DNA of 18,579 nt from Candidatus Iainarchaeum sp. (GCA_903916665.1 CAIWXP010000114.1:1-18579); one strand, 5' to 3'. Positions 996-18,579 are shown, counted from the first letter of the stretch. The notes: generated by a model not told the origin, from the letters alone. Translations and numbers: made by a program.

Positions 996-2672
996 ATGGG
1001 TGAAGTTTTAGGGGATCTTTTTAAGGATGAAAAAAAGAAATCAGTAAGATCAGTATCTAATGAAGATGTTGCAAGAGAATTGCAGGATGTTATTAATAGT
1101 CCCAAGAAAATAGTTTTGCCAGAGCAAGAAGAAGAACCAAAGGATGTTGAAATCCAAAAAATAGATTCAAAACATTTTGATGATTTAAAAAATGCAATTG
1201 ATGCAACAAAAGGAATTAAATCAGATTCTATAGATGATAGCCAAAAAACAATTATTGCAAAATATAACCAAGTAACAATTTTTAAAATTGCAAATTCTCC
1301 TCTTTTACACTACGAAATACCCGTACCAAAAGCAAACACCAGTGAACAGGACATTATCAACACAATAAAAGAAGCTGCAACAAGAATTATTTCTTTAGCG
1401 CCCTATAAAATTAGAGATGAAAAACAAAGATGGAATGTTTATTACCAAAAAGTAATGGAAATAATTACATCTAGTCCAGAATTAAAAATACCTGAAGGAA
1501 TGGCTAGTTTTTATGCAGAAAGTGTTGTTAGAGAAATGGTTGGTTTTGGTAAAATTGATTTGTTATTAAAAGATGATTTATTAGAAGAAATTATGATTAT
1601 TGGACCCAATGTACCAGTCTACGTTTTTCATAGACAATACGAAATGATGACTACAAATATTATTTTTTATACTGATAAAGAAATTCAGGATATTGTGGGA
1701 AGAGTAGCAAGATATGCTGGAAGAAGAATAGATTATTCTCAACCATTATTGGATGCTCGTTTACCAGATGGTTCAAGAGTAAATGCAACTTTACCTCCTG
1801 CTTCTGTTGAAGGTTCAACATTAACTGTAAGAAAGTTTAGAGAGGACCCCTATACAATTATTGATTTAATAAATCATAAAACTTTGGATTCCTATGTTGC
1901 TGGTTTTTTATGGACCTGTGTTGAAGGATTAAGTGTTAAACCTGCAAATATTGTTATTTCTGGAGGAACTGGATCTGGAAAAACAACAACTTTGAATGTT
2001 TTATGTTCTTTGATACCAGAATACGAAAGAATAATTTCAATTGAAGATACTGCTGAGTTAAACCTTCCTTTAAAACATTGGATTAGATTAGAAGCTAGAC
2101 CTCCTGGAATTGAAGGTACTGGTGAAATTACATTGGAAATGTTAACAAAGAATGCGTTGCGTATGCGACCTGATAGAATAATTGTTGGTGAAGTTAGAGG
2201 TCCAGAAGCAGAAGCATTATTTACTGCGATGAATACAGGACATGACGGTTCAATGGGAACGTTGCACGCAAATTCAAGTGATGAAACCGTTGTTCGTATA
2301 ACTAGTCCTCCAATGAGTGTTCCTAAAATGATGTTAGCTGGATTAGATATGATTATTGTTCAAAATAGATTACATGATAGACGAAAAGGAACAATAAGAA
2401 GAATTGTTGAAATTTCTGAAGTTTCGGGAGTAATAGAAGAACAGGTTAAAACACAAAGAATTTTTGAATGGGACCCAAAAAGAGATAAATTATTTGATAC
2501 ATCAATTCCTTCTAGAGTGTTAAAAAATATTTCAACCTATTCTGGAAGAACTTCTCAAAATATAAAAGATGAAATTGATAATAGAGCACAATTTTTTGAT
2601 TTATTATTAGAAAAAAATATTAGAAAAAAAGAAGAGTTAGCAACCTATATTGCAAAATATTTTGAATCATAA
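996..2672 (+). CDS. Type IV pilus / type II-IV secretion family ATPase (archaeal EpdL/PilB/ArlI, bacterial TadA-like)
   Basis: 558-aa ORF. Walker A 'GGTGSGKTT' (nt 1962-1988), Asp/Walker B region 'RPDRIIVGEVRG' and His box 'GHDGSMGTLHAN'. A 'GGTGAT' Shine-Dalgarno motif lies 3 nt upstream of the ATG. The N-terminal ~100 aa are K/E/D-rich and low complexity. Confidence 0.92.
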   Translation: MGEVLGDLFKDEKKKSVRSVSNEDVARELQDVINSPKKIVLPEQEEEPKDVEIQKIDSKHFDDLKNAIDATKGIKSDSIDDSQKTIIAKYNQVTIFKIANSPLLHYEIPVPKANTSEQDIINTIKEAATRIISLAPYKIRDEKQRWNVYYQKVMEIITSSPELKIPEGMASFYAESVVREMVGFGKIDLLLKDDLLEEIMIIGPNVPVYVFHRQYEMMTTNIIFYTDKEIQDIVGRVARYAGRRIDYSQPLLDARLPDGSRVNATLPPASVEGSTLTVRKFREDPYTIIDLINHKTLDSYVAGFLWTCVEGLSVKPANIVISGGTGSGKTTTLNVLCSLIPEYERIISIEDTAELNLPLKHWIRLEARPPGIEGTGEITLEMLTKNALRMRPDRIIVGEVRGPEAEALFTAMNTGHDGSMGTLHANSSDETVVRITSPPMSVPKMMLAGLDMIIVQNRLHDRRKGTIRRIVEISEVSGVIEEQVKTQRIFEWDPKRDKLFDTSIPSRVLKNISTYSGRTSQNIKDEIDNRAQFFDLLLEKNIRKKEELATYIAKYFES

Positions 2673-3815
2673 GTGAATCCTATGGCATATAATCAAACAT
2701 TTGTAAACGACACAAGTAAAAATAAAGTGGAAATTCAAGAACACTTGGACATGACTAAAGTCGATGCAATAGTTTCAAGAATAAAATCAAAATATGAAAA
2801 ACAGGGATTATTGGAAGATCCAGATTCAAAAAATTTGAGAGAATTGAGAGGGTTAATTGCAGAAGGTAAAAGAGCAAAAATAGAAATATTGAAACCATCT
2901 GATTTGAGCTATAGTTTTAATCCTTTAGTAAGAAAAGTTGGTGAAATTTATACTAAATTTAGCAAGTTCTTTGATTTCATTTCAAAGAAAATATTAAGTG
3001 CTATGCCAGAATCAAAACTATTGGCCTATGAACTATATTCTGCAGATATGAATTATAGTGTTTCACAATATTTGGCAATATCTTCTGTGATATTATTTTT
3101 TGTAAATACAATATTAATAATCGCATTTTTTGCAATATTTTTATTATTGGGCATTACATTTTTGGTTCCCTTAGCATTAACTATAATGTTATTTATTGCA
3201 AGTATATTTGTTGTTTTAAAATACCCTACGTCAGTTGCAAAAAAAAGAGCAAAGGAAATAGATACACAATTACCTTTTGCATTAAGACACATGGCAACAT
3301 TATTAAGAGCGGGTGTTGATTTATATAAAGTAATTAGAACAGTGGCCGTTGCAGACTACGGTGTTTTATCTCAAGAATTAACAAAAACAGTAATGGAAGT
3401 TGAGGAAGGGCAGGATATTAAAGATTCTTTAAGGGCTTTGGCATTAAGAACTAAGTCCTTTGCTTTAAAAAACGCAGTAAGTCATTTATTACGAGCATTG
3501 AAAAGCGGGGGAAATTTATCTGACGTAATGAATACAATTGCCGACGATGTATCCTACCAAATATTATCAGAAATAGAATCTTTTTCTGGTAAAATGAATT
3601 TTTTGGGAGTAATTTATATTTTTGCAGGAATTGTTGTTCCTGTAATGACTGCAATATTATCAGGAATAAGAAATGCACCATTAGGATCTGGGACTTCTTT
3701 CCTAGATGCTTTGCCATTAACTCCAGTAGTAATAATGTTATTATTTTTAGTTGCATTTCCAATTATGTTATTTGCAATAACAATGTATGTAAAAAGTATA
3801 AGACCAAATTTGTAG
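2673..3815 (+). CDS. Pilus platform membrane protein 1, single T2SSF domain (TadB/TadC/EpdJ-K-like)
   Basis: 380-aa ORF starting directly after the ATPase stop (TAA-GTG; alternative ATG at 2682). It has a cytoplasmic N-terminus, paired TM helices, the T2SSF-like segment 'LPFALRHMATLLRAGVDLYKVIRTVA' and C-terminal TM helices. Confidence 0.8.
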   Translation: MNPMAYNQTFVNDTSKNKVEIQEHLDMTKVDAIVSRIKSKYEKQGLLEDPDSKNLRELRGLIAEGKRAKIEILKPSDLSYSFNPLVRKVGEIYTKFSKFFDFISKKILSAMPESKLLAYELYSADMNYSVSQYLAISSVILFFVNTILIIAFFAIFLLLGITFLVPLALTIMLFIASIFVVLKYPTSVAKKRAKEIDTQLPFALRHMATLLRAGVDLYKVIRTVAVADYGVLSQELTKTVMEVEEGQDIKDSLRALALRTKSFALKNAVSHLLRALKSGGNLSDVMNTIADDVSYQILSEIESFSGKMNFLGVIYIFAGIVVPVMTAILSGIRNAPLGSGTSFLDALPLTPVVIMLLFLVAFPIMLFAITMYVKSIRPNL

Positions 3816-3822
3816 TGAGACT

Positions 3823-4731
3823 ATGTTTAATATAAAATTAATGATGGAAAAATATCAAACAATAATGTATAAAAATAAAATCAAGGTAAATATTAATCTT
3901 TGGTTTTTAATTGCAGGAATTTCTGGAATAGTCTTGATGATTTTGACCATGATTTTTGCAAACATAGTTTTAGGTTTGGTTGCTTTATTTTTTGTGGTAG
4001 ATTTATTTATTGGTTATCCATTAATTTTAGATGAGAAAAGAATTTCAGAAATAGAAAAGAATTTTCCAAATGCTTTAAGAGAAATTGCCTATTTATTAAA
4101 AACAGGTGGCACCTACGAATATGCTATAAGAGAATTAACTAGCTATGATTATGGCCCATTAAATGATGAATTAGAAAATGTTTTATTAAGATTAGAACAG
4201 GGATATAATTTTGAAGATTCATTAAATATAATTTCTGAAAATGTAGAATCAAATATTGTTAGAAAAACAATTGCTATTGTTATTGATTCTATTAAATCTG
4301 GTGCATCGTTGTCTGATATTTTAGAAGATCTTTCAGAAGATATGAGAAAATTATATAAATTAGAAATTGATAGAAAATCAAAAACAATAATGCAAATGTT
4401 ATTTATTTTCGCAGCGGGTGTATTAATTGCTCCCGCAATCTATGGATTAGTAGTAACATTAATTGATTTCCTAATGAGTGTAACCATAGGTGCAGGTTTA
4501 ACTTCTGCTGCAGTAGCTGCTCAAGCAGTTGGTGTTAGAGATCTATTAGAAAACGTTCTATTAATTTTTATTTTTATACAATCTTTGTCTTCGGCAGTAA
4601 TTGTAATATTAATGAGAGAAAGAAGCTATGCAAAAATTTTGTTATATTTGCCAATATTTTTGTTGTGTGCCTACACTGCGTTCTATGTTGTTATGTTTTT
4701 ATCGAAATATTTATTAATTGGAATGATGTAA
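3823..4731 (+). CDS. Pilus platform membrane protein 2, single T2SSF domain (TadB/TadC/EpdJ-K-like)
   Basis: 302-aa ORF with N-terminal TM pair, T2SSF-like 'FPNALREIAYLLKTGGTYEYAIREL' and C-terminal TM helices. It is a paralogue of the preceding gene, so the platform is split into two genes. Confidence 0.8.
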   Translation: MFNIKLMMEKYQTIMYKNKIKVNINLWFLIAGISGIVLMILTMIFANIVLGLVALFFVVDLFIGYPLILDEKRISEIEKNFPNALREIAYLLKTGGTYEYAIRELTSYDYGPLNDELENVLLRLEQGYNFEDSLNIISENVESNIVRKTIAIVIDSIKSGASLSDILEDLSEDMRKLYKLEIDRKSKTIMQMLFIFAAGVLIAPAIYGLVVTLIDFLMSVTIGAGLTSAAVAAQAVGVRDLLENVLLIFIFIQSLSSAVIVILMRERSYAKILLYLPIFLLCAYTAFYVVMFLSKYLLIGMM

Positions 4732-4746
4732 TTTTAGTGATAGTTT

Positions 4747-4926
4747 ATGAATAAAATTAAGTTTTTAAAGGAAAATAAAGCACAAACGGCTTTAGAAGTT
4801 ATTTTAATTGTTGGTGGCGTATTAGTATTGGTAACTGTCATAGGTTATTATTTAAAAACAAAGGTAGTAGAAACACAGGATACTAATAAACTTATTGACA
4901 TTATGAATAAAACAGCTGGAAAATAA
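4747..4926 (+). CDS. Mini-pilin 1, class III signal peptide protein (59 aa; not in ORF track)
   Basis: Hand translation: MNKIKFLKENKAQTALEVILIVGGVLVLVTVIGYYLKTKVVETQDTNKLIDIMNKTAGK. It has a basic leader, a predicted cut 'KA|QTALE' with Glu at +5, and a hydrophobic helix. A partial SD 'GTGAT' lies upstream. The 5' end is near-identical to the next gene. Confidence 0.8.
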   Translation: MNKIKFLKENKAQTALEVILIVGGVLVLVTVIGYYLKTKVVETQDTNKLIDIMNKTAGK

Positions 4927-4955
4927 TATTTATAAATTATATTGGGGGAATTAAA

Positions 4956-5165
4956 ATGGGAAGAGAAGCAATAAAATTTTTAAAAGAAAATAAAGCACAG
5001 GGTGCTTTGGAATATCTATTAATTATAGGTGGTGCGATAGTATTAGCTGCAATAGTAATTGCAATTGTTGTTAATGTTGCTAGTAAACCAAAAACAGATA
5101 TAAACACATATTCGAATCAATATGATCAAACATTAGCAGATGCAAATAAGAATTTACAAAAATAA
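4956..5165 (+). CDS. Mini-pilin 2, class III signal peptide protein (69 aa)
   Basis: 'MGREAIKFLKENKA|QGALEYLLIIGGAIVLAAIVIAIVV' shows a class III signal with Gln+1, Glu+5 and Tyr+6. A G-rich SD ('TGGGGGA') lies upstream. Confidence 0.85.
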   Translation: MGREAIKFLKENKAQGALEYLLIIGGAIVLAAIVIAIVVNVASKPKTDINTYSNQYDQTLADANKNLQK

Positions 5166-5177
5166 ATAGGTGCATTT

Positions 5178-5357
5178 ATGTTTTTAAAAGAAAAGAGGGC
5201 TCAGGTATCGTTTGAGTACCTCTTAACTATTGTTTTTGCAATTGTTTTGGTTGCAATAGTTACTGTGTTTGCTTTACAAATGCAGGGTATTGGAAACATC
5301 GCTAAAGATAGAATAGCAGAAACAAAAATAAAATATTTTGAGAAAATTTTTGGCTGA
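5178..5357 (+). CDS. Mini-pilin 3, class III signal peptide protein (59 aa; not in ORF track)
   Basis: Hand translation: MFLKEKRAQVSFEYLLTIVFAIVLVAIVTVFALQMQGIGNIAKDRIAETKIKYFEKIFG. Predicted cut 'RA|QVSFEY'. SD 'AGGTG' lies 6 nt upstream. Confidence 0.8.
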   Translation: MFLKEKRAQVSFEYLLTIVFAIVLVAIVTVFALQMQGIGNIAKDRIAETKIKYFEKIFG

Positions 5358-5362
5358 ATGAT

Positions 5363-6484
5363 ATGTATGAATATTTGGTTATTAATGCAGCAATTGTTTT
5401 TATTGCATTGTTTTATTCAACAATAACTGATATTCGTTCAAGAGAAGTTTCAAACTATATTTCTTTAGGATTATTAGCCTATGGAACAGTTGCGAATTCA
5501 ATTTATTATCTTATAACAAAAAGTTATTTGTCAACTATTTATTTTTTAATTTTTGTTGCATTAACTTTTTTAATTTGCTATTTATTTTGGAAGCTAGGAA
5601 TATTTGCCGGTGGTGATGCTAAATTATATTCTGGAATTGCCGCAACCATTCCCATATTAAATATTTCATTGATTAATAACGTGAGTTCACAGATTCCATT
5701 TGTATTGTCTTTATTTTTATTGTCAATTATTTTAATGTTGCCCATAGCTGTTGGAAAATTAATTATTGGTTATTTTAAGAGTGTTAAAATAAAAGAGTTT
5801 GTTTTAAAAAATATTAAAGAAAGTGCATTAAAGTTTATTTTAAATATAACCTACGTTGTAGCATTGTATTTTATTTTTTCATTTTTTCATTATCCTCTCT
5901 GGATGTTTTTAATAGTTTCAATAATATTGGGTTTTATACCCAAAATAATTAGATATCCTATATCAGTAATATTATTTGTTGTTTCTTTATTGTTAAATCC
6001 ATTAAATACATTTTATATTATGATATTTTCAATAATTGCAGCATTTATTTTAGGTTTAATAATAAAAATGTTTGTTTTGTCTAGATCTGGAGTATTAAAT
6101 TACTCTAAAAATGTTTCAGAATTAGTTGATGGTGACCTATTGGCACATCCTTTAATAAAAAACAATAAAGGGAAATATGAAGATTTAAAATTTAGTTTTT
6201 GGAATGAATTTAAGTTAGCCTTTAAAAAAAGCTTAAAAGAGGGCCCAAATGCTCTAAATTCTATGTTAAATAGGAGAAAGGATTTATATTCCAAAATTGT
6301 TATTAATAATAACTTGGCTTGCGGTTTAACTTTGGACGAGGTTAAATTATTAAAAATGCATTATATTGATGATAAAATAGAGTTAAAAGAAACTACTCCT
6401 TTGGTACCGAGTATTTTTTTAGCCTATGTTTTGATGATTTGTTTTGGTGATGTGGTATGGCTTCTGTTTTCTTTAATAAAATAA
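5363..6484 (+). CDS. Prepilin/preflagellin-type aspartyl signal peptidase (A24 family; EppA/FlaK/PibD-like) with long C-terminal extension
   Basis: 373-aa polytopic membrane ORF. The first catalytic Asp context is 'ITDIRSREVSN' and the second is the GxGD-type 'FAGGDAKLY'. It sits between pilin genes. About 280 aa follow the second Asp, including a K-rich soluble-looking stretch. Confidence 0.85.
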   Translation: MYEYLVINAAIVFIALFYSTITDIRSREVSNYISLGLLAYGTVANSIYYLITKSYLSTIYFLIFVALTFLICYLFWKLGIFAGGDAKLYSGIAATIPILNISLINNVSSQIPFVLSLFLLSIILMLPIAVGKLIIGYFKSVKIKEFVLKNIKESALKFILNITYVVALYFIFSFFHYPLWMFLIVSIILGFIPKIIRYPISVILFVVSLLLNPLNTFYIMIFSIIAAFILGLIIKMFVLSRSGVLNYSKNVSELVDGDLLAHPLIKNNKGKYEDLKFSFWNEFKLAFKKSLKEGPNALNSMLNRRKDLYSKIVINNNLACGLTLDEVKLLKMHYIDDKIELKETTPLVPSIFLAYVLMICFGDVVWLLFSLIK

Positions 6485-7038
6485 ATGACAAAGGACAACT
6501 AAGTGTTGAGTTTATTTTAATTATTTTGGTAGTACTAATTTTGATAGAAGTTATTATATTGCCTTTAAGAGATTATTCTGAAGCAAGTATGAAAGATATA
6601 ACTAATATTAGTTACTTAGAATCAAATATGCAAAAACTTCAACAAGCCATTAGTGATTTAAACAGTTATAGTGAAGGCAAATTAGAAGTTAAATTGCATA
6701 TACCCGAAGATAGTAATTTTTACATTCATTCCTATAGTCTTTTGTACACTGATGTTTGGACCTATGTGTCCTATAATCAAATAATTTATTCTAATGATAT
6801 AAATGTTTCTGATTGCAATAATAATATTTGTCAAAAAGATATTTTTATTGGTGCTCTAGGGATTAATGCGCCCGATACTTTTACTTCTAATAAAAGAACC
6901 TGTACAGGAAGTGGGCATTATATAAATTGTGTTTTAATACCGATTAGTGATAGTGGATATTTTTTTAATGGTCCATTAGATCAAACAATAATTATGCAAA
7001 AATCATCAGATGGAAAAATTACTTTATACAGATCGTGA
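6457..7038 (+). CDS. Pilin-like protein A (class III signal, Gln+1 type)
   Basis: 193 aa; 'MASVFFNKINDKG|QLSVEFILIILVVLILI'. SD 'GGTGA' lies 6 nt upstream. It overlaps the peptidase 3' end by 28 nt. The globular part has Cys and N-x-S/T sequons. Confidence 0.7.
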   Translation: MASVFFNKINDKGQLSVEFILIILVVLILIEVIILPLRDYSEASMKDITNISYLESNMQKLQQAISDLNSYSEGKLEVKLHIPEDSNFYIHSYSLLYTDVWTYVSYNQIIYSNDINVSDCNNNICQKDIFIGALGINAPDTFTSNKRTCTGSGHYINCVLIPISDSGYFFNGPLDQTIIMQKSSDGKITLYRS

Positions 7039-7042
7039 TTTT

Positions 7043-7366
7043 ATGAATAAAGGACAAATATCAATAGATTTACTTTTAGCATTGGTTATGTTTTTAGTAA
7101 TGATTGGGTTTTTATTAAATTACACCAATGATTTTGTTTCTGTTTCTCAAGATTATCAAAGCAATGTTTCTGGTTTTAATAGTTATATTAAAAGCTATGA
7201 TTTTATGAAAAGTGTGAATTTTTCGCCAAATACTCATTATTTAATAAATTTTAATCAGGATATAAATTATGATAATAATGCATTAATTTTTGATTTAAAT
7301 AATAATTATACCATAGACCTAAATTATATTAATTGTGATAGTTTAAATAGGACGTGTCAAAAATGA
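7043..7366 (+). CDS. Pilin-like protein B (class III signal, Gln+1 type)
   Basis: The track ORF starts at 7010, but the internal ATG at 7043 follows the upstream stop (7036-7038) and gives 'MNKG|QISIDLLLALVMFLVMIGFLL'. 'GTGAT' lies just upstream. Confidence 0.65.
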   Translation: MNKGQISIDLLLALVMFLVMIGFLLNYTNDFVSVSQDYQSNVSGFNSYIKSYDFMKSVNFSPNTHYLINFNQDINYDNNALIFDLNNNYTIDLNYINCDSLNRTCQK

Positions 7367-7890
7367 ATAGAAAAGGATTTTTTATTTCTATTGATTTAAT
7401 AATAACTTTGGCAACCGTTATTTTATTATTTGGGTTATTAGGTGCCTATTTACATGAAGGCATTCAAGATTATGCAAACTATAAAGAAGATATTAAAATG
7501 CAATCAACAATGAACATTGTTATGAATAGATTGGCAGATTCAAATTATTCCTGTGATTTATATTCTAACAATGATGAAATAATTAAAAAAGTAAGTTTTT
7601 GTATACCATTTGGTAACAATATTAAAGGATTATTTTCTGACTTAGATTATAATATAAGTATGGGTTGTTATAGTTGTTTTAAAGGCGCTTGTTCTTTTGC
7701 GGGTTGTTTTGGTTATGCGCCTTTAGATCCATCAAAATCTAGTAATTATATTGCGAAAGATATTTATTTAATGGCGCCTAAAGCAAAGGGTTTGGCAAAA
7801 TATAATTATTTAAATTGTTTTTTAAATAAATGTACGGATATTTCTGGAAACGATATAAATACATTAGTGAGAGTATATGTTTGGAAATAG
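7363..7890 (+). CDS. Pilin-like protein C (class III-like signal, Cys-rich)
   Basis: The preferred start is the ATG at 7363 (ATGA overlap with the upstream stop), giving 'MNRKG|FFISIDLIITLATVILLFGLL'. There are about 10 Cys in the C-terminal part. Confidence 0.6.
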   Translation: MNRKGFFISIDLIITLATVILLFGLLGAYLHEGIQDYANYKEDIKMQSTMNIVMNRLADSNYSCDLYSNNDEIIKKVSFCIPFGNNIKGLFSDLDYNISMGCYSCFKGACSFAGCFGYAPLDPSKSSNYIAKDIYLMAPKAKGLAKYNYLNCFLNKCTDISGNDINTLVRVYVWK

Positions 7891-8167
7891 TAAAGGTTTA
7901 ATATTTATTTTGGATTTGATTGCGGCAGTAGCCGTAATAACTATTGCGTTGATATTTATTGTGCAGGTTAAACCTGAAAATACTTTGAAACAACAAAATG
8001 ATTTAGTATATTTAGAAGCACAAAATTATTTGATGCACGTACCTTTAACAAATACCTACGATATAAACAAAAATTACATCTGCAGAAATTATACTAGGCT
8101 ATATATTGCAACTTTGAATACTATGGTTAGTGAAGATAAAAACATATGTACAAATGTGATCGGGTGA
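7877..8167 (+). CDS. Pilin-like protein D (class III-like signal)
   Basis: 96 aa; 'MFGNSKG|LIFILDLIAAVAVITIALIFIV'. It overlaps the upstream gene by 14 nt. Confidence 0.55.
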   Translation: MFGNSKGLIFILDLIAAVAVITIALIFIVQVKPENTLKQQNDLVYLEAQNYLMHVPLTNTYDINKNYICRNYTRLYIATLNTMVSEDKNICTNVIG

Positions 8168-8171
8168 AATT

Positions 8172-8729
8172 ATGAAAGGATTTTTTAGTGTGGCATTGAT
8201 AATATTTGTTCTTTTCATAACTATGTTTTATGTAACTATAAAAGAAACTTCAAAACCAATAATGTTTGACGACTCCCCTAGATTATTAGCATTAAAATCA
8301 GAAGAAGCATTTTTAACATTGGATCAAAATTTAACCTATAATTATATTGATTATAAATATTCTATTCCTTTTGATTGTAATACAAAAGGTACCAATAATT
8401 CTGATTTCTCACAATATTTGGTAACAAATTATTCTGGAACAAACATAAAAAAAGCCAATGATTATTGTACTGTAAAAGTAAGAAGTGGAAATTTTAGTAC
8501 AATAACATCAAATACTTTTGATGTGAACATATCTGCAAATATCAATTGTACATATGCTAAGGATTCTGATTTAAATTATAGCATGCAAATACAAACAGAT
8601 CTAAACTTTCATAAAAGATATCAATCCTATACTGATGGTGGGTTTTGTCATTTTATATTAACTGACTTAGATTCACAAACAGTCTATGTAGATAAAAATA
8701 ATCTAGTAGTAATAAATCTTTACCATTAA
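8172..8729 (+). CDS. Pilin-like protein E (very short class III-like leader)
   Basis: 185 aa; 'MKG|FFSVALIIFVLFITMFYV'. SD 'GGGTGA' lies upstream. I count seven N-x-S/T sequons by eye and four Cys. Confidence 0.55.
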   Translation: MKGFFSVALIIFVLFITMFYVTIKETSKPIMFDDSPRLLALKSEEAFLTLDQNLTYNYIDYKYSIPFDCNTKGTNNSDFSQYLVTNYSGTNIKKANDYCTVKVRSGNFSTITSNTFDVNISANINCTYAKDSDLNYSMQIQTDLNFHKRYQSYTDGGFCHFILTDLDSQTVYVDKNNLVVINLYH

Positions 8730-8736
8730 ATATTAT

Positions 8737-9657
8737 TTACATTGCTTCTAATACTTTGATTCTATCTTCTAAAGGCGGATGAGTACTAAATAAATTACTT
8801 AATGATTTTCCACTTATAGGTGATGCTAAAAACATATTTGCAACTGTTTTATTTGCAATTGTTTTATCATGTGTTTCATAGTATTTACCAATTTTTTTCA
8901 ATGCGCTAATTAACCCTGTATTATCTCTTGTTAATTGAACTGCACCTGCATCTGCCATATATTCTCTTTTTCTAGAAATAGCTAATTGAACTAAATTTGC
9001 AACAATTGGTGCCAATATTGCTAATACAATACCAATTATTAAAAAAACAATATTTTTATTTTCTCGATCTCCACTTGAAAACCAAAGCGATCTTAAAAAT
9101 ATTTCTGATATTATTGCTACTAGGCCAACTAGGATAACTGCCAAAGTAACAAATCTAATGTCAAAGTTTCTTATGTGCGTTAACTCGTGAGCTAGCACCC
9201 CTTCTAGTTCTTTATCTGTTAATAATGTCAAACAGCCCTCAGTAACACAAACCACTCCATTTTGAGGGTTTCTTCCTGTTGCAAAGGCATTGATCTCTTG
9301 AGAGGGCATGATATATACTTTTGGCATGGGCATTCCAGCAGCCAAAGTTAAACCGTTTACCAAAGAATTTAAGTGATTGTATTTTTTATCCGTTGTTTCA
9401 ATTGCTCCTACACTGGCCAATGCAATTTTATCTGAAAAATAATACCCTATCCAAACATATATTAGTGAGAATATTATTCCAACTATTAAAAATAAAAATG
9501 TTAATTCTGGATTATAAACTAAGGAAATAACATACATTAGTCCAACAATAATTAAAACTATGCCTATCAAAAGAATCCATGATTTTATTTTATTGTTTCT
9601 TATTTGATCATAGAAACTAATTTTTTTATAGGTTTCTGCATATTCCTTATAGTTCAT
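8737..9657 (-). CDS. htpX: HtpX-like M48 zinc metalloprotease (membrane)
   Basis: 306 aa with two N-terminal TM helices, HExxH 'AHELTHIRN' (His codons at 9187-9189 and 9175-9177), further TM helices and the C-terminal 'STHPPLEDRI' typical of HtpX. Confidence 0.9.
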   Translation of the reverse strand: MNYKEYAETYKKISFYDQIRNNKIKSWILLIGIVLIIVGLMYVISLVYNPELTFLFLIVGIIFSLIYVWIGYYFSDKIALASVGAIETTDKKYNHLNSLVNGLTLAAGMPMPKVYIMPSQEINAFATGRNPQNGVVCVTEGCLTLLTDKELEGVLAHELTHIRNFDIRFVTLAVILVGLVAIISEIFLRSLWFSSGDRENKNIVFLIIGIVLAILAPIVANLVQLAISRKREYMADAGAVQLTRDNTGLISALKKIGKYYETHDKTIANKTVANMFLASPISGKSLSNLFSTHPPLEDRIKVLEAM

Positions 9658-9669
9658 TCAAATCACTTT

Positions 9670-9709
9670 AAAAATAAAAAAGATAGGAAGTGGAATTAGA
9701 ATTCCACTT
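9670..9709 (-). terminator. Hairpin + oligo-T element between lemA and htpX (terminator or attenuator)
   Basis: A perfect 9-bp stem (9688-9696 pairs with 9701-9709, loop TAGA) overlaps the lemA stop codon. On the minus strand it is followed by CCTATC-T6-A-T5, only 13 nt before the htpX ATG. Confidence 0.4.
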
Positions 9710-10250
9710 TTACATTTTGTCTTTCTGTTTGTGTTATTTGTAAATAATCTTTTTGTGCTTTTCCAAATAATTTTGCAAACAACATACCAGGGAATAAAGT
9801 AACTGTGTTGTTATATACTAAAATTGAATCATTAAAAAATTGTCTAGTATACGCAATTTTACTTTCTATATCACTTAATTCTTGTTGCAATTGAGCAAAG
9901 TTTTCATTAGCTTTTAATACAGGATAATTTTCGGCAATTGCGAAAATGCTTTTTAATGCACTTGATATTGCATCGCTTGCTTTAAATTTTGCATCTAAAC
10001 TTTTTGCACCAACCATTGCAGCTCTTGCATTTGCTAAGTTTTCAAAAATTCCTTTTTCATGTTTTGCATAACCTTTAACAGTTGCAACCAAGTTAGGAAT
10101 TAAATCACTTCTTTTTTTCAATTGAACATCAATTTGACTAAATGCGTTATCTATTCTATTACTCAATACAACAATTTTATTGTAATAATATATTAATAAA
10201 ACTACTATTACTGCAATAATTGCTATAATAAGCCAAATCCACCAGAACAT
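9696..10250 (-). CDS. lemA: LemA family membrane protein
   Basis: 184 aa with a single N-terminal TM, then 'NAFSQIDVQLKKRSDLIPNLVATVKGYAKHE...NARA', typical of LemA. A strong SD 'GGAGGT' lies 6 nt upstream of the ATG. Confidence 0.88.
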   Translation of the reverse strand: MFWWIWLIIAIIAVIVVLLIYYYNKIVVLSNRIDNAFSQIDVQLKKRSDLIPNLVATVKGYAKHEKGIFENLANARAAMVGAKSLDAKFKASDAISSALKSIFAIAENYPVLKANENFAQLQQELSDIESKIAYTRQFFNDSILVYNNTVTLFPGMLFAKLFGKAQKDYLQITQTERQNVKVEF

Positions 10251-10315: not shown

Positions 10316-10348
10316 AAAAATAAAAAAAGAAGGAGTATTTTACTCCTT
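10316..10348 (-). terminator. Hairpin + oligo-T terminator after the large surface-protein gene
   Basis: A perfect 8-bp stem (10330-10337 pairs with 10341-10348, 3-nt loop) overlaps the stop codon. On the minus strand it is followed by C-T7-A-T5. Confidence 0.6.
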
Positions 10349-13300
10349 AATACAAGCACCTGCTTTGTCCATTACATTAAATTCAGGAATATTATAACTA
10401 ACATTATCGCAGACATATCCTTGCGGGCATTCTTTTGTAATTGTTAAAACATTTTTATCACTACTACAATAGGCTTCTTTAATAGTGGTGTTTGAAACAC
10501 AACTATCATTTTGACCGTCCACAATTTGACCATAGCTATTTTTTTGATAGGCTACACTAGGCGTAAATATATCAATTGATCCGTCAATATCAATACAAGA
10601 TTCTATTTTTGGATTATCAATTTTTTGTTTACATGCTGCGCCCTCTTGCATTTTTCCAGAATCTGTTGTAAATAATAAATGATCTAAGCAAACAAAATTA
10701 TTTGGGCAACTCAAGCTGTGTTGTGCAGGACCTTGACTTGAACAAAATGCTTCATTTATTGAATTATCGGTAGCGCAGGAATCAGAAAATGATGCTGTGT
10801 CTCCAATAGAATTAGTTCCAATTGTTATACCAGGTGTAAGGGTAGGATCAACAGAATTAGTATCAGAATCAATACAAGTTATTTTGTTGGGGTCAGGTAC
10901 TTTACAACTAGCAGTATTGTATTCAACACCATTATAATCAATGGTATCATAGCCACATAATTTTCCAGTAGTTTCACAGTTTATTTCTGATTCTTTAATA
11001 TTATTGCTATTATTAATTTCGCAGGTTCTTTGTATAGCAATATTCCCGCTACAATAATTTACATAATTATTTATGTTTCCAAATATATCTGTAATACTGA
11101 CACCCCAATCCAATGCATTACAAATTATTTTATCATTTACTTGTGGTTTACAAGCACCATTATCACAGCCAAATCCGCTTGGGCAATCAAAAGTTTTATT
11201 TGTTAATTCCAAACCATCACAATATGCTTTAGCTATTGCTTTATCAGAACTACAATAATCATAGGAATAACTTTCTTCTCCAAAAGAATCTGTATATGTA
11301 CCTTGACTTTGTTTTAATAAATTATTTTCGTCAGGAGCATTACATTTTTTTAGAGCTGGATTACCTATTGCACAACTACCACTAGTATATTGTCCAAAAG
11401 GAGTATTTAGACTACTTTCTTTACATTCTTTTCCATACAATGTACAATTAATTTCTTTAGATTTTGCTTCATTATTGTCACAGTAATATTCATTTAAAGT
11501 GGTGTGTGTTGGGCAAGTGTCCACATTAGTCATTTCTTCTCCAAATATGTTTTTAGAATTAATATAACCAGGATTATCCATGTCTATTTTATTATCAGAT
11601 TCTTTACAATATATTTTATCTTTGGAAATTGTGCTTTGGCATTTTCCGTTGTTACACAATGTGCCTGGTGAACAAGTATAATCTTTTTGTTTAACTTCTT
11701 TATTTTCACAATAATATTCAATTAATGTATTATCATCAACACAATTGTCATTTGCAGAAATATTTTTTCCAAATTGATTTGTTGCAGTTACATATCCAAA
11801 ATTTTCATAGTCTAAACCTTTATCAGAATCACTACATTGCATTAAATCTGGATTTGGTATTTCACACTTTCCTCCAGATAAATCGGTTCCAGGAATTGGT
11901 TCATCAACACAACCCATATTTTGATCAAAACAAGAATAATCTTTTTCGCCATCACAGGTTTGTTCATGCAGTATTGTACCGTATTGATCACACCAATCAG
12001 TTAGTTTACTAGATTCAAATGTTTTTTCAATACCTAAAATTGAATAGGTTGTTTTGTAAACTACAAATCCAGGCATATTGATATCAAAACCCTTATCTGA
12101 ATCTACACAGGTTGGTTTTATATCGCTAGAAACACATTTTCCACCCATACAAATTTTTCCATCCTGTGAACAATCATAGTTATAGTTTTCATAGTAATCA
12201 TGTCCAATAAATAAATCACTTTGAACACATTTTTGTTCGACTAATGTAAAATCATCATTTGCACCGGTTGCATCTTTTAAGCAAACATCATTTACTGTAA
12301 TTTTTGCAGAACTATCAGAAGTAGAATAAACTACAGAACTCGCATTGTCAGTTTCTTTAACACTAGGATTTTTTGAATCATTGTCAAAACAACTAGTAAA
12401 ATCATCATTGGTTGGAACACATTTATTTTCAACACATTTTCCTGATTTGAATCCTTGTAATTGCCCCACAATTCTACAATCAACATTCCATTTTTGGCCT
12501 AAAGGATTTGCAAAGAAACCATTATCTAATTTATACTGCGGTCTTATACAATAATTTTCTGTTAATGTGATTCCATTATTTTGACAAAAATCACTTTCTG
12601 TCCAAACCAAATCATTAAATTTATAGGCTACTTTTCCAGCTTCCAAATAACCATTTAAAGGAGCAGTTTCATCACTATCAAAACACCAAACATCACATTT
12701 TTCTGTACTGTCCAAAGTATAATACTTTCCACTATATACATTAGAAGTTAAACTATTATTATTTTCATTGGATTCTTTTACTTCGTTATCTGTATCCAAT
12801 GTTATTTTCACAGGATATGTTTTATCTAAATCCATATTAAATCTCATTGTATTTAATTTTAAATCATCAGAATAGGTAACACATTTTCCTGCAGCTATGG
12901 TTCCGTTTTCTAAAGCATATCTTATTTTAATATTTTGATCATTTGACGAAACAATAAAATTAAATTCTCCGTTAAAATCGTCTTTCCCATTATTACAAAT
13001 ATCAAAATAAATTGAATTTATACAATCTTGACTTTTTGCTGTTGAATAAATTTTACCTACGTTTAAATCGATATTTTTTATTTTGTTTTCCATACATATT
13101 CCAAAATTACAAGTTTTGTTTAAAGGGCAATCAAAATCTTTGTAACCAATGACTTCATTCAGTATATTATTAAATATTGATTCGTTTAATTGTTCTTTTG
13201 TTAATAATAAATATAATTGATTATAATTTCCATATTGTTTTTTAACTGCTGCAATAACTGCATCTGCCTGTTGTGTTGTCAATCCTTTATTATACATTAT

Positions 13301-13834
13301 TTGTTTTATTTTGTCTACTATTACTAAATCTAGTTTTGCTTTAAAAAGATCATAACTCATGGAATTTGTTTTACAAAAAGAATTTTTATTTTTATTTAAA
13401 TCGCAGGTGTCGGAATAGGTATAACAACCTTTTAAACCTTCAAATTCATAGTATACTGATGTGTTTCCTTTGTTATATATGTCAGGACTAATTTCAGAAT
13501 CATAGCAACCAATAATAGAATTTGGTTTTTTTGCAGCTTCTGCTTTTTTACAACCTTCTAAATCAATATAATTATCAGTAAATATGTTAAATAAATTATA
13601 ATCTGGTTTTAATCTAATTAGATTATTACTTATTCTTCCAGAATTAATTAGTGTTGTATTTATTGCATTATTTTTTAATATATTTACATCTATTTGCTTA
13701 ATTGGCACTGGTTTAATTGGCATAACAAATAGTCCTGTGTTTGTTATTCCATTGTTATCAAAAACATATATGCTTGCAAAAAATAAAACAAAAACTAGAC
13801 TAATAATTAAAACAGTATAAATTTGATATCTCAT
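10340..13834 (-). CDS. Large secreted/anchored Cys-rich surface protein (CARDB-like domain + 9 six-Cys modules)
   Basis: The 1164-aa frame is uninterrupted in AT-rich DNA. It has an N-terminal hydrophobic signal/anchor 'MRYQIYTVLIISLVFVLFFASIYVF'. SD 'GAGGGA' and TATA 'TATATAAA' lie upstream, and a hairpin plus T-run lies at the 3' end. Confidence 0.85.
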   Translation of the reverse strand: MRYQIYTVLIISLVFVLFFASIYVFDNNGITNTGLFVMPIKPVPIKQIDVNILKNNAINTTLINSGRISNNLIRLKPDYNLFNIFTDNYIDLEGCKKAEAAKKPNSIIGCYDSEISPDIYNKGNTSVYYEFEGLKGCYTYSDTCDLNKNKNSFCKTNSMSYDLFKAKLDLVIVDKIKQIMYNKGLTTQQADAVIAAVKKQYGNYNQLYLLLTKEQLNESIFNNILNEVIGYKDFDCPLNKTCNFGICMENKIKNIDLNVGKIYSTAKSQDCINSIYFDICNNGKDDFNGEFNFIVSSNDQNIKIRYALENGTIAAGKCVTYSDDLKLNTMRFNMDLDKTYPVKITLDTDNEVKESNENNNSLTSNVYSGKYYTLDSTEKCDVWCFDSDETAPLNGYLEAGKVAYKFNDLVWTESDFCQNNGITLTENYCIRPQYKLDNGFFANPLGQKWNVDCRIVGQLQGFKSGKCVENKCVPTNDDFTSCFDNDSKNPSVKETDNASSVVYSTSDSSAKITVNDVCLKDATGANDDFTLVEQKCVQSDLFIGHDYYENYNYDCSQDGKICMGGKCVSSDIKPTCVDSDKGFDINMPGFVVYKTTYSILGIEKTFESSKLTDWCDQYGTILHEQTCDGEKDYSCFDQNMGCVDEPIPGTDLSGGKCEIPNPDLMQCSDSDKGLDYENFGYVTATNQFGKNISANDNCVDDNTLIEYYCENKEVKQKDYTCSPGTLCNNGKCQSTISKDKIYCKESDNKIDMDNPGYINSKNIFGEEMTNVDTCPTHTTLNEYYCDNNEAKSKEINCTLYGKECKESSLNTPFGQYTSGSCAIGNPALKKCNAPDENNLLKQSQGTYTDSFGEESYSYDYCSSDKAIAKAYCDGLELTNKTFDCPSGFGCDNGACKPQVNDKIICNALDWGVSITDIFGNINNYVNYCSGNIAIQRTCEINNSNNIKESEINCETTGKLCGYDTIDYNGVEYNTASCKVPDPNKITCIDSDTNSVDPTLTPGITIGTNSIGDTASFSDSCATDNSINEAFCSSQGPAQHSLSCPNNFVCLDHLLFTTDSGKMQEGAACKQKIDNPKIESCIDIDGSIDIFTPSVAYQKNSYGQIVDGQNDSCVSNTTIKEAYCSSDKNVLTITKECPQGYVCDNVSYNIPEFNVMDKAGACIKE
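10343..12685 (-). repeat. Nine tandem protein-level repeats (~68-90 aa each) of a six-cysteine module
   Basis: Modules start at Cys 384, 482, 576, 667, 743, 831, 905, 987 and 1080. Shared pattern: C-x-[DE]-[SND]-D-x(1,2)-[GK]...G...D-x-C...[LI]-x-E-x-[YF]-C...C...C...G-x-C. An example is 'CSDSDKGLDYENFGYVTATNQFGKNISANDNCVDDNTLIEYYCENKEVKQKDYTCSPGTLCNNGKC'. The repeats are divergent at DNA level. Confidence 0.8.
12755..13081 (-). other. CARDB-like (cell adhesion related domain) segment of the large protein, aa ~252-360
   Basis: '...FDICNNGKDDFNGEFNFIVS...IAAGKCVTY...YPVKITLDTDNEVKESNENNN' matches the CARDB pattern as remembered (V.N.G..., aG, ...vDpdN.v.EsnE.NN). No search was run. Confidence 0.55.
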
Positions 13835-14090: not shown

Positions 14091-14111
14091 TAATATCACC
14101 AAGTATTTGAG

Positions 14112-14184
14112 TGCGCCTACCCGGATTCGAACCGGGGATATTCGCCTTGTAAGGGCGACATCTTAACCGCTGGATCATAGGCGC
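14112..14184 (-). tRNA. tRNA-Val (anticodon UAC)
   Basis: Minus-strand 73-nt cloverleaf. The acceptor GCGCCTA pairs with TAGGCGC. The D arm is ATCC/AGCGGTTAA/GAT (one mismatch). The anticodon stem TCGCC/GGCGA carries loop CTTACAA. The T arm is CCCGG-TTCGAAT-CCGGG and the discriminator is A. No CCA is encoded and there is no intron. Confidence 0.88.
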
Positions 14185-16378: not shown

Positions 16379-18579
16379 GTGTTTTTGTATAAACATAAGT
16401 TAAGAGAAAAAGATATTAAAAAGATTCCCTTTTTTGTTGTATTATTTTCTCTTATGACGTTAGTTTTGTATTTTTCTGGTTGTATATCGTTTTGTTCTTT
16501 AGATTCAAGCAAAGATAAAGAATGTATATCCTATACTGATGCAGTATCTGTTTGTGAAGATATTAGTAAACCAATACCTAATTATCCTATTTGTAGTGAT
16601 TTTTCAAAATCAAAGGGTTTTGATAGTCTATTTCAAAATGATTGTGAAAAGTTATTCGATGATAAAATATCCCCTGAATTACAATTTGATAATCTAAGTT
16701 TAAATACAGAACAATTATCAAACCAATTAAGACAACAAGTAATTAATTCTTGGAAATCTAGTGATAAGATTTCCTACGGTTATTATTTAATAAATAAAGA
16801 TTGTGATTCTTTTTTAACTAGCAATTTTTCTAATTATAAATATACAATAAAAAAAGAAGTAAGTAATTTAGATGCCTATAATAAAAATACTATTTTTTTA
16901 ATATTGAGTAGTATTTATTCAACAAGAAAAGATTTAATGGATAATAATATTGAATTATTGCAAGATACTTTGATATATAATGACTATATTGAATTAAATA
17001 ATATTATGAATGAATTTCAAAAATCTTTTGGAAAAGATATAGAAGTAAAACAGTCATTAATAACAAATACAATTTCATTTTATACAAAATATTATTCCAA
17101 TAATAAATCAAATATAGAATTTTCTAATGCACTATCAACATTAAGTTCAAACAATCAAGAAAATTCTCAAATATCTAGTTTTATTGGCTGGTCAGTTGCT
17201 TTAGGAGGTGTGATAGGGTTGGGAATAATTAATCCGGCTTCTGCTTTGGTTACCTATATGGTTAATGGTTTTAATTTGTCTGAAGATTTATCCTCAAAAG
17301 TATCTCAAGTTATAGATAATGCGTCCGAGAAAACAAATCTTAGTGAGTGGGAAAAATTAAATATTTTGAAGGAAATGTTAATAGATTATGAATCTGCTCA
17401 CGGAAAATATAGCTATGGAGATAAGGCATTGTTTGAATTGTTTAAAAATATGGATATTCATATATCTGATTTAAAGAAAAATAACTTAAAAATGGCCGAT
17501 CAATTAACTTCAAAAATTTTGGCTTTAGAAAATGAATTAAATAACAATATTATTGAGAAACAATCCTATGATATATTGTATTCTAAATATAATATTGTTG
17601 AATCACCATTAGATTTAAAACAAAAATTAGAAAATATAAAAAATGATGTAACTGCACTGGCCAAATTAAATTATGGTGAAACACATTATTATTTATTATT
17701 ATTTAATTCCGAATTTGATTCGTTAAAATTACAAACAGATAATTATTTTTCATCAGATTATAAATCATTAGTATCTCTATGTGCTTCAGATATTTTAACC
17801 TTAAAAGGTAAAATTATTGATTTGCCAGAATCTCAGGATAAAACAGTAGTACAAAATTATATTAATTTGTTTTTTGATTCCAAAGAGGATACAAAGAAGT
17901 TAAACTATTGCGCAAAGATATTAACTTTAATTACCAATAAACAAGATTATTCTTGTTTGTCATCATTTTCAAATTTGTCTTATAATTTAAACCTAAATAT
18001 GGATTTATCAAAATATACCGAATCAGAATGTTTGCAAGAAATAGATCATTATATAATAGATTCTGAGGACTCAGAAATATATCAAACAATTCAATCACTA
18101 TATTCAAAATTAAACTCTCAAATGTCCATTTTAAAAAATTTACACAATTCAAGCAACTGTATTTCCAATTCTGATTTTTTTGGATTTAGCTCAAAGGCAA
18201 ATAATTTATATTATGCCTCAAAATATACAAATAATAATACGTTGTCAGCAATAATCGATACAAACATATTTAAGTTAAATTTAGAGTTATCTAATTTAAT
18301 TGATAATTTGAATTTAACAATTTCTAAAACACTTAGTTGTTATTTTAAGGATAATTTTGAAATAAATAAAAATAACAAACAAATAATATTTAATAATCCT
18401 TTTGGAAATTTTATAAATGATTTTGATTTGAATATAAACAACTATGGCATTACAGATGTTAATAAATCAGATTGTTTAAATGGCTTTAATATATCAAAGG
18501 ATAAAATAGGTCTAAATTTCAAATGTATTTCCATACAAATGATTTATAGTATTAATTTTAAGAATCTAACTCCTAAAAC
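16379..18579 (+). CDS. Large secreted/lipoprotein-like protein of unknown function, 3'-truncated by the window end (not in ORF track)
   Basis: I translated every codon by hand. There is no stop from the TAA at 16376-16378 to the window end (733 codons). Candidate starts are GTG 16379, TTG 16385 and ATG 16454. From GTG the N-terminus is 'FLYKHKLREKDIKKIPFFVVLFSLMTLVLYFSGC', a basic n-region plus hydrophobic core plus lipobox-like 'FSGC'. The protein is N/K/S-rich with scattered Cys, many N-x-S/T sequons and one internal hydrophobic segment 'FIGWSVALGGVIGLGIINPASALV'. Confidence 0.8.
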   Translation, partial: MFLYKHKLREKDIKKIPFFVVLFSLMTLVLYFSGCISFCSLDSSKDKECISYTDAVSVCEDISKPIPNYPICSDFSKSKGFDSLFQNDCEKLFDDKISPELQFDNLSLNTEQLSNQLRQQVINSWKSSDKISYGYYLINKDCDSFLTSNFSNYKYTIKKEVSNLDAYNKNTIFLILSSIYSTRKDLMDNNIELLQDTLIYNDYIELNNIMNEFQKSFGKDIEVKQSLITNTISFYTKYYSNNKSNIEFSNALSTLSSNNQENSQISSFIGWSVALGGVIGLGIINPASALVTYMVNGFNLSEDLSSKVSQVIDNASEKTNLSEWEKLNILKEMLIDYESAHGKYSYGDKALFELFKNMDIHISDLKKNNLKMADQLTSKILALENELNNNIIEKQSYDILYSKYNIVESPLDLKQKLENIKNDVTALAKLNYGETHYYLLLFNSEFDSLKLQTDNYFSSDYKSLVSLCASDILTLKGKIIDLPESQDKTVVQNYINLFFDSKEDTKKLNYCAKILTLITNKQDYSCLSSFSNLSYNLNLNMDLSKYTESECLQEIDHYIIDSEDSEIYQTIQSLYSKLNSQMSILKNLHNSSNCISNSDFFGFSSKANNLYYASKYTNNNTLSAIIDTNIFKLNLELSNLIDNLNLTISKTLSCYFKDNFEINKNNKQIIFNNPFGNFINDFDLNINNYGITDVNKSDCLNGFNISKDKIGLNFKCISIQMIYSINFKNLTPK

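Follow-up and report, generated by a model that had tools for sequence, protein, structure and literature searches.

A compact, probably Epd-like type IV pilus operon in an Iainarchaeote

One group of archaeal type IV pili has been described under three names, clade 1 (Makarova et al. 2016), Epd-like (Denise et al. 2019) and System 1 (Sivabalasarma & Albers 2026). It is defined by two platform proteins with a single T2SSF domain each, by pilins of ~70 amino acids (aa) without a globular domain, by a dedicated prepilin peptidase, EppA, with nine transmembrane (TM) helices, and by a clade 1 ATPase; the same classification literature derives the bacterial Tad system from this group. In Methanococcus maripaludis, the pilins have signal peptides of 5-13 aa, Gln at position +1 and Glu at +5 (PMC3875500). 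Four minor pilins, along with further essential genes in an 11-gene operon, are needed in this organism, which has five additional pilin-like genes (PMC3875500; 2026 preprint). System 1 loci have already been reported from DPANN archaea (2026 preprint), and type IV pilus loci of DPANN were noted in 2019 to contain ‘dark-matter’ pilins. Here we describe a locus at positions 996-8729 of a contig of 18,579 bp (~28% G+C) from Candidatus Iainarchaeum sp. (GCA_903916665.1 CAIWXP010000114.1); the entire contig was analysed and is referred to below as the window. The locus is in all likelihood a complete, probably co-transcribed Epd-like (System 1, Tad-related) type IV pilus operon of an Iainarchaeote, whose filament would serve adhesion to surfaces or cells and/or the capture of extracellular DNA. 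As System 1 is already known from DPANN, the locus adds to a known system type.

The operon begins with an assembly ATPase gene, followed by two platform genes, three mini-pilin genes (mp1-mp3), a prepilin peptidase gene and five larger pilin-like genes (L1-L5; Table 1). The initial annotation had recognised an Epd/Tad-like locus here, and this assignment is well supported: the closest labelled ATPase is an EpdL orthologue, the platform proteins pair one to one with those of a methanogen and the peptidase is predicted to have about nine TM helices. The Pfam profiles T2SSE, T2SSF, Peptidase_A24 and PF04021 all have matches within the operon.

The ATPase contains a T2SSE domain (Pfam, 3e-45) with the Walker A sequence GGTGSGKTT, the Walker B sequence RIIVGEVRG, the His box NTGHDGSMGTLHANS and, at residues ~494-557, an archaeal-type C-terminal extension. 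Its closest labelled relative outside DPANN, obtained by an exhaustive representative search and cluster look-up, is the EpdL orthologue P0199 of Methanocaldococcus lauensis, with 49-51% identity (51% by BLAST). Over 360 aligned columns the identity to this protein is 48.6%, compared with 33-40% for FlaI, afGspE and the ATPases of Thaumarchaeota, Bathyarchaeota and Thermoprotei. These latter ATPases share an ‘LRQRPDY’ motif and a deletion of one amino acid, both of which are absent from the window ATPase; this protein has a signature, ‘LRMRPDRI ... NTGH-DGS’, in common with EpdL, CpaF and VirB11/TrbB. CpaF is the nearest bacterial family, and the matches in the PDB are to afGspE, CpaF and FlaI (272, 256 and 214 bits, respectively). 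The score against the NCBIfam TadA model (TIGR03819) is 247, below the cut-off of 373. A first ATPase tree, restricted to references from the PDB and plasmids, contained no Epd protein and so produced an uninformative division into three. Neighbour-joining (NJ) trees place the window ATPase outside the FlaI group and group CpaF with VirB11/TrbB (0.98), leaving the deep nodes unseparated. For the Epd-like assignment we therefore turn to the identity of the best match, the signature of motif and indel, and the pairing of the platform proteins.

Each of the two platform proteins has one T2SSF domain (PF00482; Pfam, 4.7e-22 and 6.4e-16, respectively), as expected of the split platform proposed in the initial annotation. 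The first matches the N-terminal part of ArlJ, scores better against the N-terminal than the C-terminal half of two-domain platforms, and resembles TadC more than TadB. The second matches the C-terminal part of ArlJ and only the C-terminal half of two-domain platforms. In M. lauensis, two single-T2SSF genes, for proteins of 343 and 299 aa, come after P0199, the same arrangement as EpdL-EpdK-EpdJ. Platform protein 1 scores 38.1 bits against the first of these and 15.0 against the second, while platform protein 2 scores 41.2 bits against the second and 11.8 against the first. Thus, the window proteins pair one to one, and in the same order, with those of this one reference genome. The thaumarchaeal and bathyarchaeal relatives (33-38% identity) have a single platform gene of 480-570 aa.

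Two platform genes are also found in some DPANN loci of subsystem 4A and in many loci of euryarchaeal clade 2, which raises the question of whether the window locus descends from such a clade, its platform having been split independently. The platform genes lie in the order of the halves of an unsplit gene, N before C, which is what a recent fission in place would give, and the lack of separation at the deep nodes of the ATPase tree would be compatible with such an origin. This is improbable, however, given that the ATPase has neither the motif nor the deletion of the afGspE, FlaI, thaumarchaeal, bathyarchaeal and Thermoprotei proteins, that its best labelled match is the EpdL orthologue, and that each platform half specifically matches one Methanocaldococcus half in the same order. 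The pilins are Gln+1 mini-pilins of the DUF361/PF04021 type, not of the PilA (DUF1628) type, and the peptidase is of the long form that has been reported only from clade 1 organisms (Makarova 2016). Subsystem 4A is marked by a clade 4 ATPase and by a PilY-like adhesin downstream of the platform; Pfam detects no adhesin domain in the cluster.

Of the NCBIfam models, it is FlaI that gives the ATPase its highest raw score (309 bits), and relatives of the protein are labelled ‘FlaI’ by the Joint Genome Institute, as might be expected were this an archaellum locus with a role in motility. The score is, however, far below the FlaI cut-off of 550 and the protein lies outside the FlaI group. The platform is split, unlike the single ArlJ, and models of ArlJ match it as halves only. 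Neither archaellins nor ArlC-H/X genes are present in the window or in the flanks of related loci. The initial annotation had remarked on the lack of archaellum accessory genes in the window, and the same is true further afield, there being no such genes within 10 kb upstream in relatives with 84% identity. With archaellins and accessory genes both absent, an archaellum identity is refuted, and we consider the chance of a motility locus to be negligible.

A [KR]-[GA] processing site with a hydrophobic helix behind it, that of a predicted class III signal, is present in all eight small or pilin-like proteins. The initial annotation had referred to Gln+1 pilins, a description that fits five of the eight: mp1-mp3, L1 and L2 combine Gln at +1 with an acidic residue at +5, and in the three mini-pilins this takes the form of an A/Q junction (the slash marks the cleavage site) with Glu at +5. 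It does not extend to L3-L5, where residue +1 is Phe or Leu. Both L3 and L4 have Asp at +6, and the N-terminal helix of L5 has no acidic residue. The Class_IIIsignal family (PF04021) matches mp1 (31.6 bits) and mp2 (29.6 bits) above its gathering score, with mp3 (19.3 bits) and L1 (20 bits) just below it. By pattern scan, each mini-pilin belongs to an orthogroup found across the phylum, characterised by ‘KA/QTSxEV’ in mp1, by ‘QGALEYLLLIGG’, nearly invariant in 15 loci, in mp2, and by ‘QVSFEYLLT’ in mp3. The mp2 type is the most conserved, and relatives frequently have it in duplicated or extended form; mp2 is probably the major pilin. Both mp2 and mp3 align with Flp of S. meliloti and Caballeronia over a stretch that takes in processing site and E5-Y6 motif. 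The Pfam Flp family gave no match to the mini-pilins at E<=0.1, and a search of the PDB with the mp2 sequence returned chance matches only.

The larger protein L1 is modelled by AlphaFold 2 (predicted local distance difference test score, pLDDT, 83) as a helix spanning residues 17-69 with eight strands, giving the ‘lollipop’ shape of a pilin with a beta head, and its homologues carry the label UPF0333/PF04021. An L1 orthologue follows the peptidase gene in nearly all relatives. Orthologues of L2 are found in three related loci (L001, L003 and L014) and of L5 likewise (L003, L014 and L004). By analogy with minor pilins of the GspK/PilK type, L5 is a candidate tip subunit or adhesin. It had been proposed that the minor-pilin block is larger than in described Epd loci, a claim that cannot be maintained: M. 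maripaludis has four essential minor pilins and five more pilin-like genes, and the five pilin-like genes seen here are therefore unexceptional.

The peptidase matches the Pfam families Peptidase_A24 (4.9e-12) and Arc_PepC (25.4 bits), and its residues D23 and GGD85 align with the catalytic Asp residues of FlaK. Its score against the FlaK NCBIfam model is 36, with a cut-off of 330, and its homologues are all 364-386 aa in length. In an AlphaFold 2 model (pLDDT 81.6) it has approximately nine TM helices and a soluble alpha/beta insert of ~100 aa, and structural matches are confined to the FlaK core. The predicted architecture is EppA-like, the comparison having been made with EppA as described rather than with an EppA sequence.

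The twelve open reading frames (ORFs) all lie on the + strand, and the claim of twelve co-oriented, tightly packed genes with these domains is borne out, the coordinates being those of the initial annotation. The contig begins with a gene for an archaeal RFC small subunit; from this gene to the ATPase gene and onwards, consecutive spacings are 24, 0, 7, 15, 29, 12, 5, -28, -29, -13, -14 and +4 nt. Comparison with orthologues suggests alternative starts for L2 (7043) and L3 (7363), which would change two of the overlaps to +4 and -4 nt. Recurrent GGTGA Shine-Dalgarno motifs had also been reported, which is true in part. The exact pentamer is found before only three of the twelve starts (0.1 expected); its GTGA core is found 4-16 nt upstream of eight (0.36 expected). 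A scan for sigma-70 promoters was set aside, being a bacterial model that is inapplicable to archaea. Probably the twelve genes are co-transcribed as one operon.

Table 1. Genes of the pilus operon (a slash marks the cleavage site)
Feature	Coordinates	Strand	Remarks
Assembly ATPase, EpdL-like	996..2672	+	T2SSE; 558 aa
Platform protein 1, putatively EpdK-like	2673..3815	+	Single T2SSF; ATG 2682 may be true start
Platform protein 2, putatively EpdJ-like	3823..4731	+	Single T2SSF
Mini-pilin mp1	4747..4926	+	59 aa; ENKA/QTALEV; mature ~47 aa, helix only
Mini-pilin mp2	4956..5165	+	69 aa; ENKA/QGALEYLLIIGG
Mini-pilin mp3	5178..5357	+	59 aa; EKRA/QVSFEYLLT
Dedicated prepilin peptidase, GxGD aspartyl protease, long form	5363..6484	+	373 aa; Peptidase_A24
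Pilin-like L1	6457..7038	+	193 aa; NDKG/QLSVEF
Pilin-like L2	7010..7366	+	MNKG/QISIDL; likely start 7043, 107 aa
Pilin-like L3	7354..7890	+	NRKG/FFISID; likely start 7363; 8 Cys
Pilin-like L4	7877..8167	+	96 aa; NSKG/LIFILD
Pilin-like L5	8172..8729	+	185 aa; MKG/FFSVAL; 7 N-X-S/T sequons, 4 Cys

Several observations weigh against placing the locus in the Epd-like group. In the NJ tree, the Iainarchaeota join EpdL to the exclusion of the other archaeal references with a bootstrap value of only 0.24. The comparison with Epd sequences draws on M. lauensis as the single reference genome, with its EpdL orthologue and two T2SSF proteins. The signal peptides of the mini-pilins end in Ala, as opposed to the Gly reported for M. 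maripaludis. Pfam returned no family match for L2-L5, and a Foldseek search of the PDB with the L1 model gave no significant neighbour, the best being an archaellin (E 0.09). Finally, neither a secondary ATPase of the MinD/TadZ/FlaH-like type nor a DUF2341 adhesin is found among the window ORFs, and either could lie elsewhere in the genome; MinD/FlaH-like ATPases and DUF2341 proteins are frequent features of Epd systems but do not strictly define them.

The window comes from an Iainarchaeote, a DPANN archaeon with a small genome, and is a contig of a metagenome-assembled genome. The ATPases most similar to that of the window (84-91% identity), together with 23 loci (L001-L023) from GTDB species genomes, all belong to the Iainarchaeota (formerly Diapherotrites), in agreement with the DPANN-type host suggested at the outset; they include Candidatus Iainarchaeum andersonii and the complete AR10 genome (L018). 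In every locus of sufficient length, the order ATPase, platform 1, platform 2, two to five mini-pilins, peptidase and L1-like pilin is kept, so that the synteny of the core is conserved across the phylum. After the peptidase gene, the number of pilin-like genes varies between one and five, and one relative, L014, has all twelve genes of the operon. No assignment of Iainarchaeum or AR10 is given in the supplements of Makarova 2016 and Denise 2019.

We infer the biological function of the pilus, along with co-transcription of its genes, mp2 as its major pilin and a tip role for L5, and the following scheme can be proposed. The eight pilin-like preproteins would enter the membrane, where the long GxGD peptidase would cut after [KR]-[GA], exposing Gln+1 on mp1-mp3, L1 and L2. 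A hexameric EpdL-like ATPase would work through a platform made up of the N-half-like and C-half-like proteins, and this motor would extract the helix-only mini-pilins from the membrane and stack them into a thin, Flp-like filament, with mp2 probably the major subunit. L1-L5 would probably act as a priming or tip complex, in which L5, having no conserved acidic residue, is the best candidate for the distal subunit. The filament might then bind surfaces or cells, capture extracellular DNA, or both.

A possible role in DNA uptake is suggested by the genomic neighbourhood of related loci. The gene set for natural transformation of M. maripaludis includes the epd pilus genes, and an adjacent pair encoding the OB-fold protein MMJJ_13020 and the TctA-like protein MMJJ_13030 is essential for natural transformation in Methanococcus; the TctA-like protein is a proposed DNA transporter (PMC10133366). 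A TctA-like gene (PF01970) is present, on the same strand and just after the pilin block, in 10 of the ~14 Iainarchaeota loci that are informative, that is, related loci with enough downstream sequence (L018, which is AR10, L008, L009, L015, L017, L022, L023, L004, L005 and L011). In seven loci an overlapping OB-fold gene precedes it, and in eight it is followed by a JAB-domain gene. In two loci, L004 and L005, the TctA-like and JAB genes are embedded between the pilin-like genes. In AR10 (L018 17809-20349), the pilin block is directly followed by genes for a DUF2101 protein, an OB-fold protein (PF01336), a TctA-like protein and a Prok-JAB protein, and the OB-fold protein resembles MMJJ_13020 in its single N-terminal TM helix. 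A DUF2101 membrane protein often precedes the OB-fold, TctA and JAB genes in relatives; no mention of it was found in the searchable literature. Nor is the TctA neighbourhood mentioned in either of the two classification papers, and no searchable paper connects TctA with these loci.

This linkage makes DNA uptake a serious alternative or additional function. The pilus may be primarily the surface module of a DNA-uptake apparatus, for competence or DNA scavenging, with the OB-fold protein and the TctA-like channel encoded elsewhere in the genome from which the window derives. Such a role is compatible with adhesion, and we regard it as a real possibility, if one to which we give somewhat less than even weight. 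The recurrence of the TctA-like gene, its position among the pilin-like genes of two loci and the single N-terminal TM helix of the AR10 OB-fold protein all speak in its favour, as does the proposed transporter function of the TctA-like protein. However, the linked loci are related by descent and cannot be counted as independent cases, the proposal that TctA acts as a DNA channel is itself hypothetical, and no DNA-binding pilin has been identified. Moreover, no OB-fold/TctA pair adjoins the locus in the window or in L014, its closest long relative, the block ending at a convergent M48 peptidase gene, and the pair is also absent from L007. For the window, the case for DNA uptake is thus drawn from relatives. 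The longer contigs of the relatives with 84% identity are uninformative in this respect, breaking inside the pilin block.

The contigs of three relatives (L001, L048 and L049; ~84% ATPase identity) all end within the L3-L4 part of the block, which hints at strain-level variability that breaks assemblies.

Adhesion could also take a more particular form, suggested in the initial annotation, in which the pilus serves as the host-attachment organelle of an episymbiotic DPANN cell. The host does belong to DPANN, type IV pili are reported to mediate contact between episymbiont and host in the analogous bacterial Candidate Phyla Radiation group, and L5 and the other Cys- and sequon-rich pilin-like proteins could serve as adhesins. 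Nevertheless, nothing in the window or in its relatives links the locus to a host, none of the present results bears on the lifestyle of Iainarchaeota, and systems of the same type occur in free-living methanogens and Thermococcales. Host attachment is accordingly a speculation, and one that we consider unlikely. The evidence supports neither this suggestion nor that of a self-contained adhesion pilus, also made in the initial annotation. For most of the relatives, the genomic context speaks for DNA uptake at least as strongly as for adhesion or host attachment.

A tentative extension, about which we are rather more doubtful than hopeful, is that the Iainarchaeota Epd-like operon forms one half of a single-locus DNA-uptake machine, in which the filament would capture DNA, and the membrane-anchored OB-fold protein and TctA-like channel would import it; the window would carry the pilus module of this machine. 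If so, comparative genomics would give independent support to the idea that the long-sought DNA transporter of archaea is the TctA-like protein, and DPANN archaea with small genomes may use a Tad-like pilus for scavenging DNA or nucleotides, instead of or besides attaching to a host. The connection between pilus and TctA has so far rested on one transposon screen in Methanococcus, to which the clustering in Iainarchaeota adds independent genomic evidence. It bears directly on how archaea import DNA. The TctA neighbourhood is the most promising lead to emerge from this analysis.

Beyond the operon, genes for an M48 peptidase and LemA (8737-10250, - strand) converge on its end with a gap of 7 nt to L5, and the same convergent pair follows the operon of L014. 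Two candidate surface proteins are encoded further along the window: a protein of 1164 aa with a CARDB domain (10340-13834, - strand), which is not co-oriented with the pilus operon, and an ORF of at least 733 codons (16379-18577, + strand), which has no Pfam match, lies outside the operon and runs off the end of the contig. The sole RNA gene detected in the window with Rfam is a tRNA-Val (TAC) at 14111-14184 on the - strand.

Other observations concern the wider ATPase family. No other contig gave an exact match to the window ATPase. High-scoring relatives of 800-970 aa were considered as a bridge to Epd and dropped, as they are stand-alone, tandem double-T2SSE proteins. P0038 (L043/L044), P0013, P0014, P0023 and P0040 each have two tandem T2SSE domains per polypeptide and have genes that stand alone in uncultured archaea, some of them labelled Hydrothermarchaeales. 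The Iainarchaeota also have a second T2SSE paralogue of 524 aa with ~46% identity (L047 8001-9575; P0311/P0189), whose gene sits by itself in a housekeeping neighbourhood, no platform gene being adjacent. In L018 (9779-12934), L013, L015-L017, L021 and L022, the pilus ATPase contains an intein (Intein_splicing, LAGLIDADG and helix-turn-helix domains), inserted after about residue 468-488 of the AR10 protein, or about residue 420 of the window protein. The RFC small subunit of the closest relatives likewise contains an intein (L001 670-2967, L048/L049). In the window, both the ATPase and the RFC protein (322 aa) are intein-free.

Among known systems, the archaellum shares with the window locus a homologous ATPase and platform, the GxGD peptidase core and class III signal peptides. 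It differs in that the window platform is split, archaellins and the ArlF/G/H/C/D/E/X genes are missing, and the ATPase scores too low for the FlaI model and is without the deletion that marks the FlaI group.

Bacterial Tad/Flp systems also have features in common with the window locus. CpaF/TadA is the nearest bacterial ATPase, with 45-51% identity in the core, and CpaF and the window ATPase have the motifs ‘RPPxxEGxG’ and ‘NTGHDGSMGTLHANS’ in common. In both systems the ATPase gene is followed by two platform genes, the pilins are of Flp size with a processing site followed by E5-Y6, and the A24 peptidase has no methyltransferase domain. Unlike Tad, the window locus has an archaeal host and contains, in contrast to the Tad loci L039 and L040, no secretin (RcpA/CpaC), CpaB, TadZ/CpaE, TadD or TadG domains; its ATPase is under the TadA cut-off and has an archaeal C-terminal extension that is absent from CpaF; its platform genes run from N-half-like to C-half-like, the reverse of tadB-tadC; its peptidase is more than twice as long; and its pilins have Gln+1.

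With the transformation gene set of M. maripaludis, the Iainarchaeota share all three elements, an Epd-type pilus, a single-TM OB-fold protein and a TctA-like membrane protein. In Methanococcus these modules are found at separate loci, whereas in most Iainarchaeota they form one cluster on the same strand; the window has the pilus module only.

The closest counterpart is the Epd pilus of M. maripaludis itself. In common with it, the window has an ATPase gene with two single-T2SSF platform genes behind it, arranged as at the M. lauensis locus; pilins that lack a globular domain, measure ~60-75 aa and carry a short signal peptide (PF04021), Gln+1 and Glu+5; several larger minor pilins; and a dedicated long peptidase distinct from the FlaK/PibD type. 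It differs in the Ala at the end of the mini-pilin signal peptides, in having no DUF2341 adhesin-like protein, MinD-like ATPase or other Epd accessory genes, and in an ATPase N-terminal domain that does not align with that of M. lauensis EpdL. Most Iainarchaeota relatives, furthermore, join the operon to OB-fold and TctA-like genes. The major pilin of M. maripaludis is encoded at a distant locus, whereas the window operon contains three conserved mini-pilin paralogues, and the M. maripaludis components are spread over four or more loci, in contrast to the single operon of 7.7 kb described here. That length accommodates the motor with its split platform, the peptidase, and the pilins and minor pilins: a condensed form of the archaeal system considered ancestral to bacterial Tad. 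As the parts of the only genetically studied example are scattered, such a locus lends itself conveniently to heterologous reconstitution and to building models of a minimal Flp-like filament and its priming complex.

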